The notes beneath the pieces are model-generated. The model did not search any database. It had not been told where the DNA came from and saw only the letters and a program-made list of their open reading frames with translations. Made by a program: the position numbers and the translations under genes. Positions 5,008 through 63,393 of a stretch of 64,000 bases of DNA are shown piece by piece. The stretch is from Pseudomonas phage HPP-Temi: the sequence record PP968062.1; one strand, 5' to 3'. The first letter of the stretch is position 1. Each line of letters begins with the position of its first letter.

Positions 5008-5040
5008 TAAAGCCCGGCCTTGAGCCGGGCAATATGTCGT
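5008..5040. terminator. bidirectional hairpin (GCCCGGC-cttga-GCCGGGC) followed by AATATGTCG motif
   Basis: 7-bp GC stem between convergent genes 2086..5001(+) and 5040..6314(-); member of the hairpin+TATGTCG family. Confidence 0.7.
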
Positions 5041-6284: not shown

Positions 6285-6573
6285 TACCTTTAGAATGCTC
6301 GTGGAGCTTGTCACGTAGGAGGTACAACTCTAAACGAATAATCTCCTCAATCGCCTTACGTCGTGCAACAATAACACCACGCTTAGAATCGAAGGCAGTT
6401 TTATTCGCAACAATTGCATCGGTGACTATCCGATGTCCATTACTTAGTTTAGTAATGCAGACAGTCACCAACATTTCAGGGTCAGAGATGATCTTCTCTT
6501 TAACAATTAACGACTTGGCGTATGCTTTAGTAATCCTAGGATGCACCAAATCGTCATGGGTATGGTCGACCAT
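6271..6573 (-). CDS. hypothetical small protein (100 aa)
   Basis: ORF track; short overlap with downstream gene. Confidence 0.45.
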   Translation of the reverse strand: MVDHTHDDLVHPRITKAYAKSLIVKEKIISDPEMLVTVCITKLSNGHRIVTDAIVANKTAFDSKRGVIVARRKAIEEIIRLELYLLRDKLHEHSKGNENA

Positions 6574-6590: not shown

Positions 6591-7031
6591 TTAGCCTTCT
6601 ACTTCAAGCTGGCGCAGAACGTTAGTCACTTCGTTTTGGCACTTGGCGAATTCGTAGCGGCTAGCGAGCATTTGTGCGGTAGCGGTTTCATCGCTGGTCT
6701 GATATTCTTCAGCGGTAACAGATTTCATCGCAGCTTCAACGATAGCCGGATCAGTTACACAGTTAATCAGTTCCAGACGAATACGGACGATCTGCTTGAA
6801 CAGTTCAGTAGCAAGTTTCAGATCGAGAGCAATGTTCTCGTTAACCTGACCAGCTACTTTACGGAGCATGGGCATATGCGCATCGATCAGCTCTTCACAG
6901 GAAAGGCTCGGATCGAGTTGAACATAGAAACCAACAGCGTTAGCTACGAACATAGCGCGAGCTTGACGATCATTGTTGGTCGGAGATTTGATTTCTTTCA
7001 GGATGCGGGCAATTTCAAAACCAGTACGCAT
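6591..7031 (-). CDS. hypothetical protein (146 aa)
   Basis: ORF track; tight spacing in minus-strand gene string. Confidence 0.6.
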   Translation of the reverse strand: MRTGFEIARILKEIKSPTNNDRQARAMFVANAVGFYVQLDPSLSCEELIDAHMPMLRKVAGQVNENIALDLKLATELFKQIVRIRLELINCVTDPAIVEAAMKSVTAEEYQTSDETATAQMLASRYEFAKCQNEVTNVLRQLEVEG

Positions 7032-7046
7032 TTCGGTCTACCTTGT

Positions 7047-8294
7047 TTATTGAGTTAAGCGGAAAGCTTGTAAGAACAAATCATTGTTCAGCAATGTCTC
7101 TAGATTCTCTTCTGCTTGCTTGTGATGTAACTCACGCCGGCGTGCAGGGCGGAAGAATTCTAAGACAGAATCAAACATACCACGATTGTTCGAGAAATCT
7201 TTAATGATGTCATCAATAGCTTTTATGTCGTCACTCATAGCAGCTTTATCTTTAGCTGTATCAGAACGGCGAAGCTGAGCGATAAGATCACGACGCACTT
7301 TCATAATGCGTTCACGGGGATCATCGTAACGGGCAGAGAAGTTAAACTCGTCTACTTCGGCATTTATTATGATCACAAGCATAACTAGTGGGGAGAACCA
7401 CAACATAGCTAGTGCGTGGATAATCATCATGAAGTAACCGGTTTCCCGATGTTCGAGTCCGTAGTACTTATCAAACTTATGCAAACATGTGGCGAGGTCA
7501 CGACTATAACCCAAACGACTGGCAAACATATCTGCCATTTGTTCTTCACGACGCATTGCCGTAACGGGGTTATTCATCAGGTGGTGTCGTGGGGCTTTCT
7601 TATAAGCAGAAAGGATGGCACGACGCACATTGCCAACATCTGAACGATCGTTGATATAGGCTTCGTATTCTTCTGGCTTCAGGTTATCTTTGAGCCATTT
7701 GTCGGTGAAGATCTCCAACTTGAATACGTTCTGTTTCTTACCTTGCAGGATCTCGATCCCGTCAGTCAGGTAATAGTTGAGCCAAACGTAATCACCCATG
7801 TACATGAAGACGTTGAAGGTGTGACCGATTTCGTGAATCAGTGCAGCTGCTACTTCACGAATTGTAAAGCCCAGTTTCTCACTAATGAATCCCAGGGAGA
7901 TATAGACTTTAAATTTGAGTTCGTCAGCAAGACCACCTTTAACATGGACGTTCTTTACATCGATAACTGTTTCCAGTTTACGAGGGTCGTTATAGCTGTT
8001 CTCAGCGCGAAGCCGTTTGTGAGCATTATACCAAGTACCGCTGTGACCCAAGGCCATCATTTCAATACTGACGCCAGCATCCAGACCAGTATCGCCAGAA
8101 ATGGTGAAGTCGTAATTGATACCAGTTTCAGCTTTCAGTTCCGCTGTAAAATCTGTAAGGAGTTTGACCGGAATGATTTTGTCTTTTGCGTATGCTTCCC
8201 GAATCAGAGTAATGTATTTCTCCGTGATCGGGCCAATGTTGGACTTAGCTCCAACAGCTAGCATCTCTTGAGAGATAGTGAATCGGTTATACAT
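7047..8294 (-). CDS. zinc metallopeptidase (HExxH, membrane-anchored; M48/M56-like)
   Basis: AALIHEIGHTFN motif (HExxH) plus hydrophobic segment YFMMIIHALAMLWFSPLVMLVIII. Confidence 0.65.
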   Translation of the reverse strand: MYNRFTISQEMLAVGAKSNIGPITEKYITLIREAYAKDKIIPVKLLTDFTAELKAETGINYDFTISGDTGLDAGVSIEMMALGHSGTWYNAHKRLRAENSYNDPRKLETVIDVKNVHVKGGLADELKFKVYISLGFISEKLGFTIREVAAALIHEIGHTFNVFMYMGDYVWLNYYLTDGIEILQGKKQNVFKLEIFTDKWLKDNLKPEEYEAYINDRSDVGNVRRAILSAYKKAPRHHLMNNPVTAMRREEQMADMFASRLGYSRDLATCLHKFDKYYGLEHRETGYFMMIIHALAMLWFSPLVMLVIIINAEVDEFNFSARYDDPRERIMKVRRDLIAQLRRSDTAKDKAAMSDDIKAIDDIIKDFSNNRGMFDSVLEFFRPARRRELHHKQAEENLETLLNNDLFLQAFRLTQ

Positions 8295-12436: not shown

Positions 12437-12468
12437 TATTGCCCGGCTTAAGGCCGGGCTTTATGTCG
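12437..12468. terminator. bidirectional hairpin (GCCCGGC-ttaag-GCCGGGC) + CTTTATGTCG
   Basis: Near-identical, inverted copy of element at 5008-5040; between convergent genes. Confidence 0.7.
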
Positions 12469-13162: not shown

Positions 13163-13190
13163 ATAAGCCCTCCCCGAAGGGAGGGCGTTA
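13163..13190 (-). terminator. hairpin GCCCTCCC-cgaa-GGGAGGGC
   Basis: 8-bp GC stem immediately 3' of minus gene 13194..14639. Confidence 0.65.
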
Positions 13191-19678: not shown

Positions 19679-19689
19679 AAAAAAAATAA

Positions 19690-19727
19690 GGCATACGCCC
19701 TCTCCCGAAGGAGAGGGCTATATGTCG
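19690..19727. terminator. hairpin GCCCTCTCC-cgaa-GGAGAGGGC + CTATATGTCG; A10 tract upstream
   Basis: 9-bp stem; minus RNA gets U10 tail; same stem sequence recurs at 61332. Confidence 0.75.
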
Positions 19728-19729
19728 TC

Positions 19730-19969
19730 TTACACTTGCGCTTCGATCATCATGAAAAGACCACCCAAGAAGAGGGTTAACAACGCAACGATTGCAGCGC
19801 CCCACATGAGGACAGTGCAGATTGTGTTGATACGGTCCAACATGATTCGATCTTTCTTGGGTAGACGAGTACGACGGATATCGTCATCGTCTTTCACCAG
19901 TTTGGCTACAAACAAAGAGCCTGCAATAACTGCAAGCGCGATCCACCAGACGAGCATGATGGCTTCCAT
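19730..19969 (-). CDS. small membrane protein (2 TM)
   Basis: Hydrophobic helices; part of 6-gene AT-rich cluster. Confidence 0.55.
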   Translation of the reverse strand: MEAIMLVWWIALAVIAGSLFVAKLVKDDDDIRRTRLPKKDRIMLDRINTICTVLMWGAAIVALLTLFLGGLFMMIEAQV

Positions 19970-19982
19970 GATGAACTCCTTG

Positions 19983-20243
19983 TTACTTCATAAACATCCA
20001 GGGTGGCATCTGTAGCGTCGTGTAGACACTAACCAAAGCCGTGAGGAGAAGCACTAGGTAAATAGCAAAGCTAATAGCCCAGCTAACACAGAGGAACATA
20101 CAGAAGTACTTCCAATTGGGAAGCCACTTGCATACGCCCATTACGAACAGCCATGACACGATATAACCAATCAGGAACATCAGTCCTGGGAAGCTAATCG
20201 TAGCGTAGATAAAGGCAATTGGGTTGGTGAACATCAGATCCAT
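19983..20243 (-). CDS. small membrane protein (3 TM)
   Basis: Hydrophobic helices; cluster member. Confidence 0.55.
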   Translation of the reverse strand: MDLMFTNPIAFIYATISFPGLMFLIGYIVSWLFVMGVCKWLPNWKYFCMFLCVSWAISFAIYLVLLLTALVSVYTTLQMPPWMFMK

Positions 20244-20251
20244 GTTGGTCC

Positions 20252-20440
20252 CTATTTAGGAAGCATGTCAAAGAGATGGTATCCTGCGTAGCCTGTAACA
20301 GCGATTATGACCATTCCAATAAGAACCGTTACGATTCTATCCGACGGGGTCTTACCGCTTGCTACAAGCCCGTAGAACGTCGTTAAGCCTCCTATCAACA
20401 ACAGGGTGAAGAAGGCAAAGACTATTACGGTCCAACTCAT
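20252..20440 (-). CDS. small membrane protein (2 TM)
   Basis: Hydrophobic helices; cluster member. Confidence 0.55.
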   Translation of the reverse strand: MSWTVIVFAFFTLLLIGGLTTFYGLVASGKTPSDRIVTVLIGMVIIAVTGYAGYHLFDMLPK

Positions 20441-20443
20441 AGG

Positions 20444-20644
20444 TCAACTCAGGAAGATGATGTAGAAGGCAGCGATCACCAGCAAGATTACCGCCAGGAT
20501 TGCCGCCAGTGGACCGGAGATATTGAAAGCTTTCGCCAACTCGATCGGCATGTGGGATGTTTTAACACCCAATGCGTGCTTCAGGCAATACACGGCGAAC
20601 AGGATAATGATCAGAAAGCAGAAAACGTTAGACAGAAATGCCAT
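20444..20644 (-). CDS. small membrane protein (2 TM)
   Basis: Hydrophobic helices; cluster member. Confidence 0.55.
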   Translation of the reverse strand: MAFLSNVFCFLIIILFAVYCLKHALGVKTSHMPIELAKAFNISGPLAAILAVILLVIAAFYIIFLS

Positions 20645-20691
20645 GGTATTACTCCTTTAGAGGGGCTATATTCATTGTTGTAATATAGGCT

Positions 20692-21051
20692 TTAAACCAG
20701 TTTAAGTACATACGACAGGTTAGCCATAGCAAACAGGGCTACTGTAAAGAACCCAAACCAACCGATGAAGTAGTAACGATAATCACGCCACCACTTGGGA
20801 GTATCATAACCATTCGGATTGATTACAGCATTACCGATACCCAATACACAGGTCCAGATAGCTGCAACACCAGTAAGGATACTCAGCGTAGTGAACGGTA
20901 GATAAATATACGCTGCGATAGGGATAGCAATAACCGCAACAAGAATGCAGAACATCAGGTTGGGGAAAGGAAGAGCACCGTGGGGAGCGTTTTCATAAGC
21001 GTGTTGAGAGAAAGTAGTCATTTCATTTTCCTTAGATGTTGGTAACAGCAA
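20692..21051 (-). CDS. membrane protein (3-4 TM)
   Basis: Hydrophobic helices; cluster member. Confidence 0.55.
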   Translation of the reverse strand: MLLPTSKENEMTTFSQHAYENAPHGALPFPNLMFCILVAVIAIPIAAYIYLPFTTLSILTGVAAIWTCVLGIGNAVINPNGYDTPKWWRDYRYYFIGWFGFFTVALFAMANLSYVLKLV

Positions 21052-21328
21052 TTACAAACAGGATCAGCGTAAAGTAAGTTAATACCAGGTAACATTTCTT
21101 TACGAACGTATGGATCAATCGGGTCAACGCAATCTCAGAATACTCTATAGACTGCTTTATTAACGTCGGTTTGATGTTCTGTCCGGCTAAACGTAACATG
21201 TGTTTATAGTGCGCGGTTCTGTACTCCTCGCGGAGCTTCAGTTCCAATACATACATCATGACGGCTAATATCGGTGAAACAATAAGCAGGATCACAGGTG
21301 ACATTTCTCTATTTCCTCTTCGTGGCAT
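21032..21328 (-). CDS. small membrane protein (2 TM)
   Basis: ORF track 21032..21337 (GTG); ATG at 21326-21328. Confidence 0.5.
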   Translation of the reverse strand: MPRRGNREMSPVILLIVSPILAVMMYVLELKLREEYRTAHYKHMLRLAGQNIKPTLIKQSIEYSEIALTRLIHTFVKKCYLVLTYFTLILFVIAVTNI

Positions 21329-21353
21329 AAAGCCCACCCGGAGGTGGGCTATG
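21328..21353 (-). terminator. hairpin GCCCACC-cgga-GGTGGGC + CTATG
   Basis: 7-bp stem 3' of helicase gene; CATAAAG 5' flank. Confidence 0.6.
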
Positions 21354-21354
21354 T

Positions 21355-22890
21355 TTAGTGCATGGATATACGCCGTAGCACCATCGACAATGTCTTCCCA
21401 GCGAAATGTTCTCCTTTATTACGTGCATATCTCACGTGATGCGGTATGTTCTCGCAGACCATGTAGGTCAAACGTGGGACTACGTCAAGGAAATCTTTCA
21501 GCTTACGGAGACGACCCAGAATTTGGATGTTGTCTTTCTTCGAGTCAGTTGCTTGGAGAAGCACTACCTCACGAAGGTTAGGAATGTCTACACCTGTACC
21601 GGATGACTTAATAGTAGACACCGTAATGTCGTTATTAAGTAGCTGATCGTAACTACACCCAGAGACATGTCCGTTAACAGTCAAGTCAGGGAACTTAGTC
21701 TTCAGGTATTTAACCAGCTTTTCAATGAAGGCTACAGTTGCACACAGGAGGAGTAGCTTCTGACCAGGTAAGCGGTCTTTCACATACACGCCTTCTGCAA
21801 TACGACCAACCATCTTGAAGTATTCATCCATCCGCTTAGGATCTTTCATCATTACTGTTTCGTAACGCGCATGGTTATACGTGTTCTTAAACGGAGTCAG
21901 ATAATCCTTAGGCTTGATCTTAGGTTCGGTGTAGAGTAACCCCATGCAGTTGATGTAGACGTCGTAGTTAGGCAACCGACACATCGTCTCGGCAGGCAAC
22001 ATCTTGTCAATCATCTTCGTCACGTAGGCATTCCCTGTGTAGGGAGTAGCCGACAGATATATCTGCTTATTAATGTTCGAGTAAATATCGATCCGGAAGG
22101 TTAGACCTGGATCCTCTTGAATCTCGTCATTGATTTGGCAGCCTGCTTGGATTGCTTCGTGGAACCGGGGCGGTGGTACATTATACCCGAGCTCATGGAG
22201 TCGGTTTCCGTACTTCTCGAAGTTATCAAGATATGCCCGGTAGGTAGTAGAAGAGATTACAATAACGTCAATCCCTTCAAGATCGTTTTCAACGCCACGA
22301 TCAATCAGTTTCTGAAGCTCGGCGGAACCAGAGATTGTGATGTATCTCTGAGCAATGTCTTTGTACGTGTTCTGGAGAGCCTCAATCCAAATACCGAAGT
22401 ACTTGGGAGGAACCATCACAACGCAACGACACATCATCGAGGCAAGGGATGCTAGACTTGTTAGGGTCTTTCCTTTACCTGTTTGTAGGTCAACTCGTGC
22501 AGAGTGTAACCAGTCCCGCAAAATGTCTTCACGGATGATTTCCTGATAATCCCGCAGTACGTATTTTTCGTACATCTCGTAGGTAGCTGCTGCTGCCTTT
22601 GGGACAGGGATATCCTCAATCTCGACTCGTTCTCTTGGGATACCTTTGTTCTCCAGATAACCGATCAGGTCTTCTAGTGAATTTCGGTGGATATAAGTCT
22701 CTGATAGATCTTCGAAACAACCATAGTACTTTTTCTTGAGTTCCATGATGATTCGATTACCAGGGATCTTCTTAGGTTCTTTCAAAGAAAGCCCTTCAAG
22801 AAACCCCTGCATTTTAGCGAACGTTTCCCGAGTATACCCAGATAGTCGGACACCATGCGTATAGCGCTCAGCCTTGAGTATCGGTACCAT
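21355..22890 (-). CDS. SF2 helicase (DExH/D-box-like)
   Basis: Walker A TGKGKT, DEIQ box, SAT (LSATP), motif VI QILGRLRK. Confidence 0.8.
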   Translation of the reverse strand: MVPILKAERYTHGVRLSGYTRETFAKMQGFLEGLSLKEPKKIPGNRIIMELKKKYYGCFEDLSETYIHRNSLEDLIGYLENKGIPRERVEIEDIPVPKAAAATYEMYEKYVLRDYQEIIREDILRDWLHSARVDLQTGKGKTLTSLASLASMMCRCVVMVPPKYFGIWIEALQNTYKDIAQRYITISGSAELQKLIDRGVENDLEGIDVIVISSTTYRAYLDNFEKYGNRLHELGYNVPPPRFHEAIQAGCQINDEIQEDPGLTFRIDIYSNINKQIYLSATPYTGNAYVTKMIDKMLPAETMCRLPNYDVYINCMGLLYTEPKIKPKDYLTPFKNTYNHARYETVMMKDPKRMDEYFKMVGRIAEGVYVKDRLPGQKLLLLCATVAFIEKLVKYLKTKFPDLTVNGHVSGCSYDQLLNNDITVSTIKSSGTGVDIPNLREVVLLQATDSKKDNIQILGRLRKLKDFLDVVPRLTYMVCENIPHHVRYARNKGEHFAGKTLSMVLRRISMH

Positions 22891-30507: not shown

Positions 30508-32085
30508 TTACTGGTTGATCTGAGCGAGGTGGAGAACCACTTCGGTGATCGTATGCTTGATGTTCGGAGGCGGAATCAGAACGTTGTTCTGTGCGATCTG
30601 ACCAGAGAGTTTAAACAGCTCACTCGGGCCATGATAGATCCACGTGGAAGAACGGATAGACTGGTTGCAGTTGTTAACCGCAATACCGGCCATGTTGTCA
30701 GGCTTCGGAATCTCCCCGGATTGAGGAACCTTAGCAAGCTTCATGTGCGGGTACAGTTCATCCAGTTGCGCCTTGTACTTCTGTGCGATCCGCGATCCGC
30801 TTCGAGTATTGCTAAGTTGATTCGTCGAGCCATGTTCACCATGGTAAACAGGTTCAACTTGCATGAAGACTGCTACATCCAGGTAACCCCAGTGCCACAG
30901 CAAAGCCTGTGTGGTTGCCAGCAAGGTGTTCACCGGCAGCTTGGAGATATGGTAGAATGCACGTGCAGGGAAAGCCTTAGCCATTACCCATTGAGCAAGC
31001 AATACCTGGTGAGGACGGATCTCGTAGTTCGCGACCTGATTCACGCAGCTAATGCACTTCCGCAGTTTCTCCAGATCAATGGTCGGATCTACTGTAGTTG
31101 CCAGCAGTTCGTAATCCATTGCATCGATGTTGTAAGCTTCGATATCACCAGGGCTCACTCGACCTTTAGTCTTGTGGGCCTCGATGAACGAGGTCTTATC
31201 TTCATCATCACCACCACCGCCTTCCGGGCGCTTTTCGTTAACCCGATCAGTTGGGCTACGTTCAGCAGGGTTCAGGTTGCTACGCACGTAACGGAACGTG
31301 TTAGCTACGATGGAGTGGGACATTGGATCGTTCAATGGAACAATAGTCAGTCGACGTACCAGAACCTTCGAGCGAAGGTGTACCGGAATCTCAACCGAAC
31401 TCATACCCCGCCAGAGACTACCCAATGTGGTCGGCTCATCTTCAACGCAGAATTTGACGTACCCTTCCAGTTTGTCGAATGCGACATCTACGTCTTCACC
31501 CACTTCGTCTTTTTCGAGCAACGGCCAGTTAGCAATCTCACAACGGCTGATAAGACCAACGACTTCGTTTTCCTTATGGAGTTCTTGATCCGTACCCGAA
31601 TCAATGTATTCACCCCAGATCGGAACCATCGGACGCAGAGCCAATGCAACTGTTGCCAGGTTGATGTAATCATGTTGCAGGTAAGTCTGCTCCCGCTTGG
31701 TATAGCGGGATTCATCAGTGATCGTTTTCTGGATCTCTGGTGGAATATGCAGGTTACCGATAGTCAGCAACCAACGACGGAGTTTGTTCATCGGCAATGC
31801 CGAGTACAGTTCGTGGATGTAATGAATCAGCGTACTGGAGATGTGCGCAGGTTCGAAGTCCATCTTGAACAGATCGTTGATTTTGACATAGCTGTTCCAA
31901 ATACGATCTTGGTCAGCTTCATCACAACCTTCAAGGTAATCGTTGAATTCCTTGAACACCCGAGTAGGGTCGTTGAGTTTTACTTTGCTATAAGCTCGTG
32001 TACTCCACTTGATTTCGTTTCCTTTATGGCTCGTAGTCACTTCTACGAAACCGTTCCCTTGTACTCCAGTTACGTCAATACGCAT
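30508..32085 (-). CDS. hypothetical protein (525 aa)
   Basis: Long ORF; SD TGAGGTATAA; early-type promoter 32 nt upstream. Confidence 0.75.
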   Translation of the reverse strand: MRIDVTGVQGNGFVEVTTSHKGNEIKWSTRAYSKVKLNDPTRVFKEFNDYLEGCDEADQDRIWNSYVKINDLFKMDFEPAHISSTLIHYIHELYSALPMNKLRRWLLTIGNLHIPPEIQKTITDESRYTKREQTYLQHDYINLATVALALRPMVPIWGEYIDSGTDQELHKENEVVGLISRCEIANWPLLEKDEVGEDVDVAFDKLEGYVKFCVEDEPTTLGSLWRGMSSVEIPVHLRSKVLVRRLTIVPLNDPMSHSIVANTFRYVRSNLNPAERSPTDRVNEKRPEGGGGDDEDKTSFIEAHKTKGRVSPGDIEAYNIDAMDYELLATTVDPTIDLEKLRKCISCVNQVANYEIRPHQVLLAQWVMAKAFPARAFYHISKLPVNTLLATTQALLWHWGYLDVAVFMQVEPVYHGEHGSTNQLSNTRSGSRIAQKYKAQLDELYPHMKLAKVPQSGEIPKPDNMAGIAVNNCNQSIRSSTWIYHGPSELFKLSGQIAQNNVLIPPPNIKHTITEVVLHLAQINQ

Positions 32086-32112: not shown

Positions 32113-32148
32113 CAACTGTAATATAGATCTGAGATATTTTTTAATGTC
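32113..32148 (-). promoter_or_regulatory. early-type promoter motif (minus: AAAAATATCTCAGATCTATATTACAGTTG)
   Basis: Contains TATATTAC, the reported phiKZ early promoter core; upstream of 30508..32085. Confidence 0.65.
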
Positions 32149-44535: not shown

Positions 44536-44541
44536 TAAACA

Positions 44542-44572
44542 GCCCCTACCCGAAGGTAGGGGCTTTATGTCG
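44542..44572. terminator. hairpin GCCCCTACC-cgaa-GGTAGGGGC + CTTTATGTCG
   Basis: 9-bp stem; identical stem-loop recurs at 55342-55363. Confidence 0.75.
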
Positions 44573-48734: not shown

Positions 48735-48767
48735 CGACATAATGCCCTCCCGAAGGAGGGCGATATG
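48735..48767 (-). terminator. hairpin GCCCTCC-cgaa-GGAGGGC; minus strand reads hairpin-ATTATGTCGTTG
   Basis: 7-bp stem 3' of 48768..49175. Confidence 0.7.
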
Positions 48768-55326: not shown

Positions 55327-55341
55327 AAAAAATAAAGCATA

Positions 55342-55369
55342 GCCCCTACCCGAAGGTAGGGGCTTTATG
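55342..55369. terminator. hairpin GCCCCTACC-cgaa-GGTAGGGGC + CTTTATG; A8 tract upstream
   Basis: Exact copy of stem-loop at 44542; between convergent genes. Confidence 0.75.
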
Positions 55370-63364: not shown

Positions 63365-63393
63365 CGACATATAGCCTCTCCCGAAGGAGAGGC
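63365..63393 (-). terminator. hairpin GCCTCTCC-cgaa-GGAGAGGC; minus strand reads hairpin-TATATGTCG
   Basis: 8-bp stem 3' of 63404..63829. Confidence 0.7.

Follow-up and report, generated by a model that had tools for sequence, protein, structure and literature searches.

The virulent myovirus T4 encodes two early, small inner-membrane proteins, Imm and Sp, that exclude superinfecting phages, are non-essential and vary between lineages. Here we describe a cassette of six tandem genes for very small membrane proteins on the minus strand of Pseudomonas phage HPP-Temi (positions 19730-21337 of a 64,000-nucleotide stretch of sequence record PP968062.1, the whole of which we call the window). The cassette resembles Imm and Sp in that its products are very small inner-membrane proteins, and a promoter motif suggests that four of them may be expressed early; it differs in that the T4 genes are single whereas these form an array of six, no sequence or profile match connects the two, and a shared function would be a matter of analogy. 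Holins (class I and II, and the class III holin gp142 of phage phiKZ) are likewise small proteins of the inner membrane, with 1-3 transmembrane domains (TMDs), but the HPP-Temi genes lie outside any lysis cassette, four of them behind an early-type promoter, and have no similarity to gp142. Hyperplastic or moron-like regions, finally, share with this locus their own promoter and terminator, variable content, duplications, signs of mosaic recombination and an occasional homing-endonuclease-like insertion (here in the metagenomic contigs L017 and L018); by contrast, the content of the cassette consists entirely of small transmembrane hairpins, and its promoter and genomic slot are conserved in at least seven named lineages plus metagenomic relatives. 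We class the cassette with the small accessory membrane proteins that large virulent phages make early, with no new principle demonstrated; a conserved slot of this kind with an embedded early-type promoter appears not to have been described.

The list of open reading frames (ORFs) of the window confirms the six consecutive minus-strand ORFs of the preliminary description of this DNA, and they are as tightly packed as it had stated, with spacers of 10, 47, 3, 8 and 13 nt. From the upstream end these are F (21032-21304; 90 amino acids), E (20692-21021; 109 amino acids), D (20444-20644; 66 amino acids), C (20252-20440; 62 amino acids), B (19983-20243; 86 amino acids) and A (19730-19969; 79 amino acids). 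Shine-Dalgarno sequences precede F (AAGAGGA), E (TAAGGAA), D (a strong AAAGGAG) and A (a strong AAGGAG); D is the first gene past an internal promoter, and C starts just 3 nt past the D stop, so that the two are likely to be translationally coupled. Two of these starts are revised. F had been given a GTG start at 21337 (101 amino acids), which falls inside the stem of a terminator, T1; because the ATG at 21304 has a Shine-Dalgarno sequence and is the start common to the related phage PA1C and the metagenomic contig L023, we moved the start there. For E, the presence of a Shine-Dalgarno sequence and agreement with PA1C make ATG 21021 the most likely start in place of TTG 21051. The size range originally given, 62-119 amino acids, thus keeps its lower bound and becomes 62-109 amino acids.

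The products of these genes are very small integral inner-membrane proteins: five two-helix hairpins and one three-helix protein. We searched for hydrophobic 19-mers with a Kyte-Doolittle value >1.6 and also applied the Hessa deltaG scale; every ORF has at least two such segments on both scales. They lie at residues 4-22 and 72-90 of F, on either side of a 49-residue K/R-rich loop (10 K+R); at 22-40, 44-62 and 84-102 of E; at 3-21 and 46-64 of D; at 4-22 and 36-54 of C; at 20-38 and 49-67 of B, which has a hydrophobic N-terminal extension besides; and at 3-21 and 50-68 of A, around a highly charged 28-residue loop (9 K+R, 6 D+E). The earlier estimate of 2-4 transmembrane helices per protein was therefore right in that all six are hydrophobic and multi-segmented, and too wide in its count, which is two in five of the proteins and three in E. 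Hessa deltaG sums for the cassette proteins range from -5.2 to +1.7 kcal/mol, and just 3 of the 92 other window ORFs of at least 100 amino acids reach a value of 0 or below. Nor is the clustering a matter of chance. When genes were called crudely over the entire window, ORF A was displaced by a shadow ORF and five cassette ORFs were hence counted; all five have 2-3 hydrophobic segments each, just seven called ORFs outside the cassette score any such segment, and no other run of small hydrophobic ORFs occurs.

Structure prediction and charge distribution suggest how these proteins might sit in the membrane. AlphaFold2 modelled F from its single sequence as one long helical hairpin (helices 3-41 and 46-89) with a predicted local distance difference test score (pLDDT) of 81.8, and E at low confidence (pLDDT 58.7) with helices at 20-40, 43-67 and 76-108; in both models the helices match the hydrophobic segments, and the hairpin of F, as modelled, would reach into the cytoplasm. 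E also has a conserved loop motif, GIGNA..P..DTP..W..YRYY.IGW. Lysine and arginine are concentrated in the central loops of the five hairpins (10 in F, 3 in D, 2 in C, 2 in B and 9 in A), with 0-1 at the termini. By the positive-inside rule the loops would be cytoplasmic and both termini would face the periplasm, making F, D, C, B and A putative N-out/C-out hairpins with almost no periplasmic mass; in this prediction, the residues at the periplasmic face would number 0-19 per protein at most.

Very short ORFs in a spacer between convergent operons could be spurious or decaying, their hydrophobicity a by-product of T-rich DNA, and we considered this explanation for the whole array. The AT-rich island in which the array had been placed does not stand: the cassette has 45.0% GC against 46.4% for the window, and a dip to 41.5-43% is confined to its F/E part, with similar dips nearby. 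The cassette does have a strong AT skew (up to 0.26), which we read as reflecting the T-rich hydrophobic codons of the coding strand. Annotation of the locus is also inconsistent between records: the GenBank record of phage HHBS36_1 (4251-4692) places a coding sequence (CDS) on the opposite strand over the D ortholog and cuts the C ortholog short. In the DNA of HHBS36_1, both D and C are uninterrupted on the strand that they occupy in PA1C, and the antisense ORF annotated over D is not open in the window; judged from these sequences, the opposite-strand CDS is an annotation artefact. Against the idea of spurious ORFs stand the ratios of nonsynonymous to synonymous substitution rates (dN/dS) relative to the PA1C orthologs, which are far below 1 in all six genes (F 0.35, E 0.11, D 0.12, C 0.12, B 0.04, A 0.07), with synonymous sites saturated in five of the six, F being the exception. 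Further, all six ORFs stay open in genomes with 58-83% DNA identity (F and E also in L023), Shine-Dalgarno sequences are present, and the slot is kept in 13 lineages. Taken together, these observations have essentially refuted the spurious-ORF explanation, to which we give next to no weight, and the six ORFs are almost certainly real genes encoding membrane proteins.

The phage itself can be placed by its neighbourhood. A DNA search with the 3-kb stretch around the cassette matched solely Pseudomonas jumbo phages: this stretch is 79% identical to PA1C, PS119XW, HHBS36_1, phiHQ, BRkr and phiLBG22, and 201phi2-1, D6, Psa21 and RVTF4 are more distant DNA relatives. The adjoining superfamily 2 (SF2) helicase, a single intact ORF of 511 amino acids in the window (21355-22890, minus strand), shares 96.7% protein identity with its PA1C counterpart, 84% with that of PhiPA3, 74% with that of 201phi2-1 and 71% with phiKZ gp075. 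By these DNA matches and helicase identities, the window comes from a phiKZ-like, nucleus-forming Pseudomonas jumbo phage (a chimallivirus) of the PA1C group. The cassette lies downstream of the helicase gene and the beta/beta' genes of the non-virion RNA polymerase (nvRNAP), and on its other side faces convergent homologues of phiKZ gp076.4, gp077 and gp078.

This position is a conserved slot for small membrane proteins. Relatives carry the array, as the preliminary description had supposed, and they do so at two depths. Within the PA1C group, PA1C (QBX32224-QBX32229), PS119XW, HHBS36_1, phiHQ, BRkr and phiLBG22 match the cassette gene by gene, with six one-to-one orthologs whose order and strand are unchanged, all annotated as 'hypothetical protein'; the flanking terminators match and the promoter core with the 14 nt upstream of it is identical, whereas the proteins are 62-89% identical against 96.7% for the helicase, which is frameshifted there and intact here. 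More widely, the slot between the helicase and the convergent gp076.4/077/078 homologues holds 1-6 small ORFs in 13 of 13 related Pseudomonas lineages, nearly all of these ORFs having two hydrophobic segments: gp076, 076.1, 076.2 and 076.3 in phiKZ, gp069-072 in PhiPA3, gp132-134 in 201phi2-1, gp115-119 in Phabio, six ORFs in Viktualia, gp78-82 in Psa21, and 1-6 ORFs in each of the IMG/VR contigs L014-L019. The counterparts in phiKZ, PhiPA3, 201phi2-1, Phabio and Psa21 share with the window the slot, a length of 47-96 amino acids, a mostly two-helix hairpin form and the TATATTAC promoter; they differ in gene number (3-6) and in the position of the promoter within the array, and show no statistically supported similarity to the window proteins. 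We regard the conservation of the slot as very nearly certain.

Outside this clade the arrangement is different. Noxifer, Erwinia phage AH06 and Ralstonia phage RSF1 have no small transmembrane array in the slot and carry soluble proteins of 75-263 amino acids there instead. The absence from other chimalliviruses, a gene number that varies from 1 to 6, tandem duplications, and divergence faster than that of the neighbouring genes together suggest that the cassette is a clade-specific accessory feature. Two further observations concern what the slot may hold. The last gene of the arrays of 201phi2-1 (gp134, 6601-6807) and Viktualia (7254-7433) encodes a conserved soluble protein of 59-68 amino acids with no hydrophobic segment, the two being 71% identical, so the early unit is not made up exclusively of membrane proteins in every lineage. 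Contigs L017 (6586-7278) and L018 (6517-7260) have a soluble ORF of 230-247 amino acids between the helicase and the small transmembrane genes; by eye it resembles a homing endonuclease, and the slot may be an insertion hot spot.

An internal promoter motif of the early, virion RNA polymerase (virion-RNAP) type divides the cassette. It occupies 20668-20721 on the minus strand and reads GTACTTAAACTGGTTTAAAGCC-TATATTAC-AACAATGAAT, or in short …TTTAAAGCC-TATATTAC…TGA; its core, TATATTAC, lies at 20680-20687 inside the 47-nt spacer between E and D, and the motif end is 35 nt upstream of the D ATG. The core and the 14 nt upstream are unchanged in PA1C, while the flanking coding DNA is just 58-70% identical. 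An extended form of the motif, tAtT.aAAc..aTTTaAa..c-TATATTAC-aa...TGAa, accompanies the small ORFs, either within their array or at its head, in 12 of the 13 lineages: phiKZ (between 075 and 076), PhiPA3 (069 and 070), 201phi2-1 (132 and 133), Phabio (118 and 119), Viktualia, Psa21, contigs L014-L018, and the window together with PA1C, with L019 lacking it. With a position weight matrix built from 22 instances, the window yields seven sites, every one of them on the minus strand (62189, 61035, 55880, 43418, 41596, 32125 and 20687); the cassette site ranks second, scoring 41 bits where the window background is -48 +/- 12. The site at 32125 precedes a 525-amino-acid ORF (30508-32085) and may drive an operon running down to the nvRNAP and helicase genes.

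Two lines of evidence point to the early class for this motif. Firstly, in the first 50 kb of phiKZ it precedes gp005, gp006, gp010, gp010.1, gp031, gp036, gp041.3 and gp054 (ChmA), that is, chmA and left-end genes. Secondly, it fits the published descriptions: early promoters of these phages are highly conserved, about 10 nt long, AT-rich and centred near -10, and are the sole class that sequence alone suffices to find (PMC7598289); they have an extended -10 box with a T-rich element upstream of -19, and gp054 has the early motif (PMC8244752); and in 201phi2-1 promoter conservation falls at -10, -20 and -30 (PMC11512511). The cassette motif agrees with this pattern of a highly conserved AT-rich element near -10, T-rich elements near -20 and -30, and a start codon about 30-40 nt downstream. 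We consider it likely, with good though not complete confidence, that this is an internal early-class promoter. Its -20/-30 elements (20692-20721) extend over the final six codons and the stop codon of E, whose C-terminus, …YVLKLV* here and …YAFKFI* in PA1C, would thus be constrained by promoter sequence. A scan for sigma-70 promoters gave one match against 7.2 expected by chance, and is irrelevant here, as expected for a phage that makes no use of the host RNA polymerase.

The hairpins said to bracket the cassette are both present, and both are of the phiKZ type. The phiKZ intrinsic-terminator consensus, BCCYCCCCHWWDGGGRRGGBYTTATKYYGT, is a hairpin followed by TTAT (PMC10914365), and a motif of the same kind has been described in 201phi2-1 (PMC11512511). 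T1 (21323-21350, minus strand), directly past the helicase stop codon, reads AGCCCACC-TCCG-GGTGGGCT and continues into TTATGCC; T2 (19680-19718), which separates ORF A from the convergent phiKZ gp076.4-like gene, has a 9-bp GC stem around a TTCG loop, GCCCTCTCC-TTCG-GGAGAGGGC, with a minus-strand tail of GTATGCC plus a T run and a plus-strand tail of TATATGTCGT. Both conform to the phiKZ-type arrangement of a GC-rich stem, a 4-nt loop and a TTAT(G) tail, which in T2 takes the form GTATG. Given its position between convergent genes, T2 is probably bidirectional. Both hairpins are conserved in PA1C, and T1 in L023 as well. They belong to a window-wide family of about 22 GC-stem sites, mostly with a TTCG (or CGAA) loop and mostly with TTATG-type tails, T-rich in a few. 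Near-identical hairpins with (T)TTATG(Y)CG stand at gene ends, for example at 5012-5030, 12441-12459, 13167-13186 and 44541-44564, with more at 48744-48761, 55341-55364 and 63374-63393; several are palindromic enough to serve both strands. As TATG, the minimal consensus of phiKZ late promoters, is part of the tail, one may ask whether these terminators overlap late promoters. A late TATG promoter for F-E just past T1 was dropped as a candidate, PA1C having TATAC there.

Promoter and terminators together suggest two expression units, F-E between T1 and the promoter, and D-C-B-A from the promoter to T2. F and E would then probably be expressed by read-through of T1 from the helicase operon, and D, C, B and A would be made in the first minutes of infection.

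This arrangement bears directly on whether the proteins control lysis. In phiKZ the lysis cassette consists of the i-spanin gp141, the o-spanin gp141.1, the class III holin gp142, the regulator gp143 and the endolysin gp144, and experiments have shown both that lysis depends on this gp141-144 cassette and that the cassette suffices for it (PMC12894885). One or more of the HPP-Temi proteins might control lysis timing, whether as holin, pinholin, antiholin or lysis-inhibition factor: they are small, with 2-3 TMDs and a size typical of holins, and lysis of phiKZ slows with multiplicity of infection while its lysis-inhibition system is still unidentified (PMC12894885). The genomic evidence points elsewhere. 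PA1C has its gp142 homologue at 143034-143426 (E-value 2e-18), about 80 kb from the cassette, and PS119XW, phiHQ, PhiPA3, 201phi2-1, Phabio and Noxifer likewise have theirs away from the slot; Noxifer thus has the holin yet lacks the cassette. The window has no match to phiKZ gp141-144 (for gp142, by tblastn), and no endolysin or spanin gene adjoins the cassette. Four of the six genes lie behind the early-type promoter. An early promoter need not by itself disqualify an antiholin, as rI of T4 encodes an antiholin that can be expressed early; the cassette proteins, with at most 0-19 periplasmic residues, have no room for a sensing domain like that of T4 RI. The location of gp142 elsewhere, the early-type promoter and the lack of a periplasmic domain together make the holin or antiholin role first suggested for these genes distinctly improbable.

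The cassette proteins evolve fast. Whereas the helicase is nearly unchanged between HPP-Temi and PA1C, ortholog identity is 89% for F, 67% for E, 65% for D (62% by BLASTP), 83% for B and 84% for A, and the stretch from C to E is the least conserved DNA within the 9-kb neighbourhood. The comparison with contig L023 is steeper: its helicase is about 90% identical, against 37-39% for F and 48% for E, the F homologue there (P0004, 88 amino acids) being distant and in the same position. Between genera, cassette proteins other than the C family show no BLAST similarity. We compared lineages by Smith-Waterman z-scores and local hidden Markov models (HMMs) against reversed and shuffled decoys, and just two cross-lineage families passed, that of C and that of 201phi2-1 gp133. 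The C family, found by BLAST, comprises the PA1C ortholog and members in the IMG/VR contigs L014-L016, where it is tandemly duplicated; an HMM of seven C-family sequences recruited no further member. Three candidate pairs, C with phiKZ 076.1, A with PhiPA3 gp072 and B with PhiPA3 gp071, were rejected because their scores did not rise above decoys.

Two local features concern the history of single genes. A 200-bp patch in F (21086-21285) is 95-97% identical to PA1C between flanks of 58-80%, and the synonymous rate (dS) of F is 0.14 against 0.7-2.4 for neighbouring genes. Identity between F and its L023 homologue is nevertheless just 39%, and the low dS and the patch suggest recent recombination between lineages rather than sequence constraint. 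An 18-nt imperfect direct repeat (20175-20192 and 20950-20967) encodes FPGLMF in B and FPNLMF in E, in each case before a transmembrane helix. It hints, weakly, at an ancient tandem duplication that gave rise to B and E; their pairwise z-scores are just 2.5-3.4 and the repeat scan was otherwise empty.

Database searches bear out the earlier remark that nothing here is identifiable by motif. Pfam, PHROGs, PADLOC and NCBIfam assigned no family, giving sub-threshold, composition-driven matches only. A word-indexed search of 5.8 billion proteins returned the PA1C ortholog alone for E and nothing for C. An exhaustive HMMER search with F found PA1C, the true distant homologue P0004 and a 964-amino-acid leucine-rich-repeat protein; we discounted the last as a repeat-summed artefact, in which nine short stretches all align to the same 28 residues. 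Foldseek of the F model against viral structures gave a best E-value of 0.7, and an Rfam scan of the locus gave no match. The literature searched contained no characterisation of phiKZ PHIKZ076/gp076.x or its counterparts.

Five features come together here: the proteins are probably made early, they sit in the inner membrane, their sequences turn over very fast, their copy number varies and includes tandem duplications, and they occur in a single host-specific clade. This combination is typical of accessory genes involved in conflict and not of core functions in replication. We tentatively propose, as the likeliest of the readings considered but one that may well prove wrong, that the cassette serves early membrane-level conflict, either superinfection exclusion or counter-defence, and is not part of the lysis apparatus. 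Early in infection the proteins would enter the inner membrane of the host, where they would either exclude superinfecting phages in the manner of T4 Imm or blunt membrane-acting defences directed at jumbo phages; Imm and Sp would be their nearest analogues in function. Such defences have been described in P. aeruginosa, where the jumbo-phage-specific systems Juk and Dionysus combine transmembrane sensors with pore-forming effectors and attack the early-infection vesicle (bioRxiv 10.1101/2025.09.30.679545). Of the roles initially listed for these genes, superinfection exclusion and host-membrane remodelling gain in plausibility from the early promoter together with the fast evolution.

Several points weigh against the conflict proposal. 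PhiKZ and PhiPA3 are known to co-infect single cells, so exclusion would not be absolute between genera. Profile and structure searches linked the proteins to none of the known superinfection-exclusion or anti-defence proteins, and the literature searched gave no functional or expression data for the cassette genes or phiKZ gp076.x. The topology is derived from hydropathy and charge counting only. The label 'early' comes from motif matching and from position upstream of known early genes rather than from a mapped transcription start site, and a middle-class assignment keeps some probability, since the middle-class motif of Wicke et al. contains TACT and gp054 has both early and middle motifs (PMC8244752).

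The same features would suit proteins that retool the host cell. The hairpins could inhibit or retune transporters, respiratory or proton-motive-force components, the divisome, the type IV pilus or flagellar platforms, with a cell optimised for phage production as the aim and not a fight against competitors or defences. The early-type promoter, the near absence of soluble domains and the accessory distribution also fit such modulators, and the 49-residue K/R-rich cytoplasmic hairpin of F could dock a cytoplasmic partner. Conserved host machines, however, predict slower turnover than is seen, and searches of the profile libraries showed no homology of these proteins to a known inhibitor. We regard host takeover, both in this mechanism and in this aim, as unlikely, if still worth bearing in mind.

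The inferred timing also coincides with the stage at which the phage genome is enclosed in the early phage infection (EPI) vesicle, and the hairpins might act in the vesicle or the adjoining inner membrane, shielding it against pore formers or opening it for genome transfer. The vesicle is lipid-bounded and recruits host membrane proteins (bioRxiv 10.1101/2024.03.24.586471), host transmembrane sensors and pore formers attack it (bioRxiv 10.1101/2025.09.30.679545), and the literature searched contained no phage-encoded membrane component of the vesicle. A core step of infection would be expected to use conserved proteins, however, whereas the cassette occurs in a single Pseudomonas clade, with neither its sequences nor its gene number conserved; the phage nucleus occurs across several host genera (bioRxiv 10.1101/2024.03.24.586471). 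These considerations leave a role in the vesicle with little probability. Reports of EPI vesicles cover several genera of chimalliviruses.

The helicase next to the cassette carries a further difference between HPP-Temi and its relatives. In PA1C it is 1 nt short in the run encoding the Walker-A motif (GKGKT), where ACAGGTAAAGGAAAG in the window (22450-22480) corresponds to ACGGG-AAAGGGAAA in the PA1C record (about 6393-6429). The gene is split alike in 7 of 7 PA1C-type records, as two tblastn pieces or two CDS, and the independent metagenomic contig L023 (about 470-510) carries the same deletion. By comparison of these records, the split could mark a pseudogene, reflect programmed frameshifting or stem from a mutation common to the lineage.

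Interest in nucleus-forming jumbo phages centres on the ways in which they conceal their DNA. Least understood are the first minutes of infection, when a lipid vesicle encloses the genome, and membrane-acting host defences are now known to target this stage. At the practical level, this analysis corrects two start codons, flags a wrong-strand annotation and provides promoter and terminator motifs for annotating this phage group. If the genes are dispensable fitness factors, they would amount to ordinary accessory phage biology; if a role at the EPI vesicle were true, their turnover would record an arms race inside a lipid bilayer. In either case the cassette is a compact, clade-conserved, fast-evolving and apparently uncharacterised set of probably early membrane proteins, and its six genes here and the four in phiKZ (gp076-076.3) form a candidate list for superinfection exclusion, resistance to systems of the Juk or Dionysus type, and the biology of the EPI vesicle.

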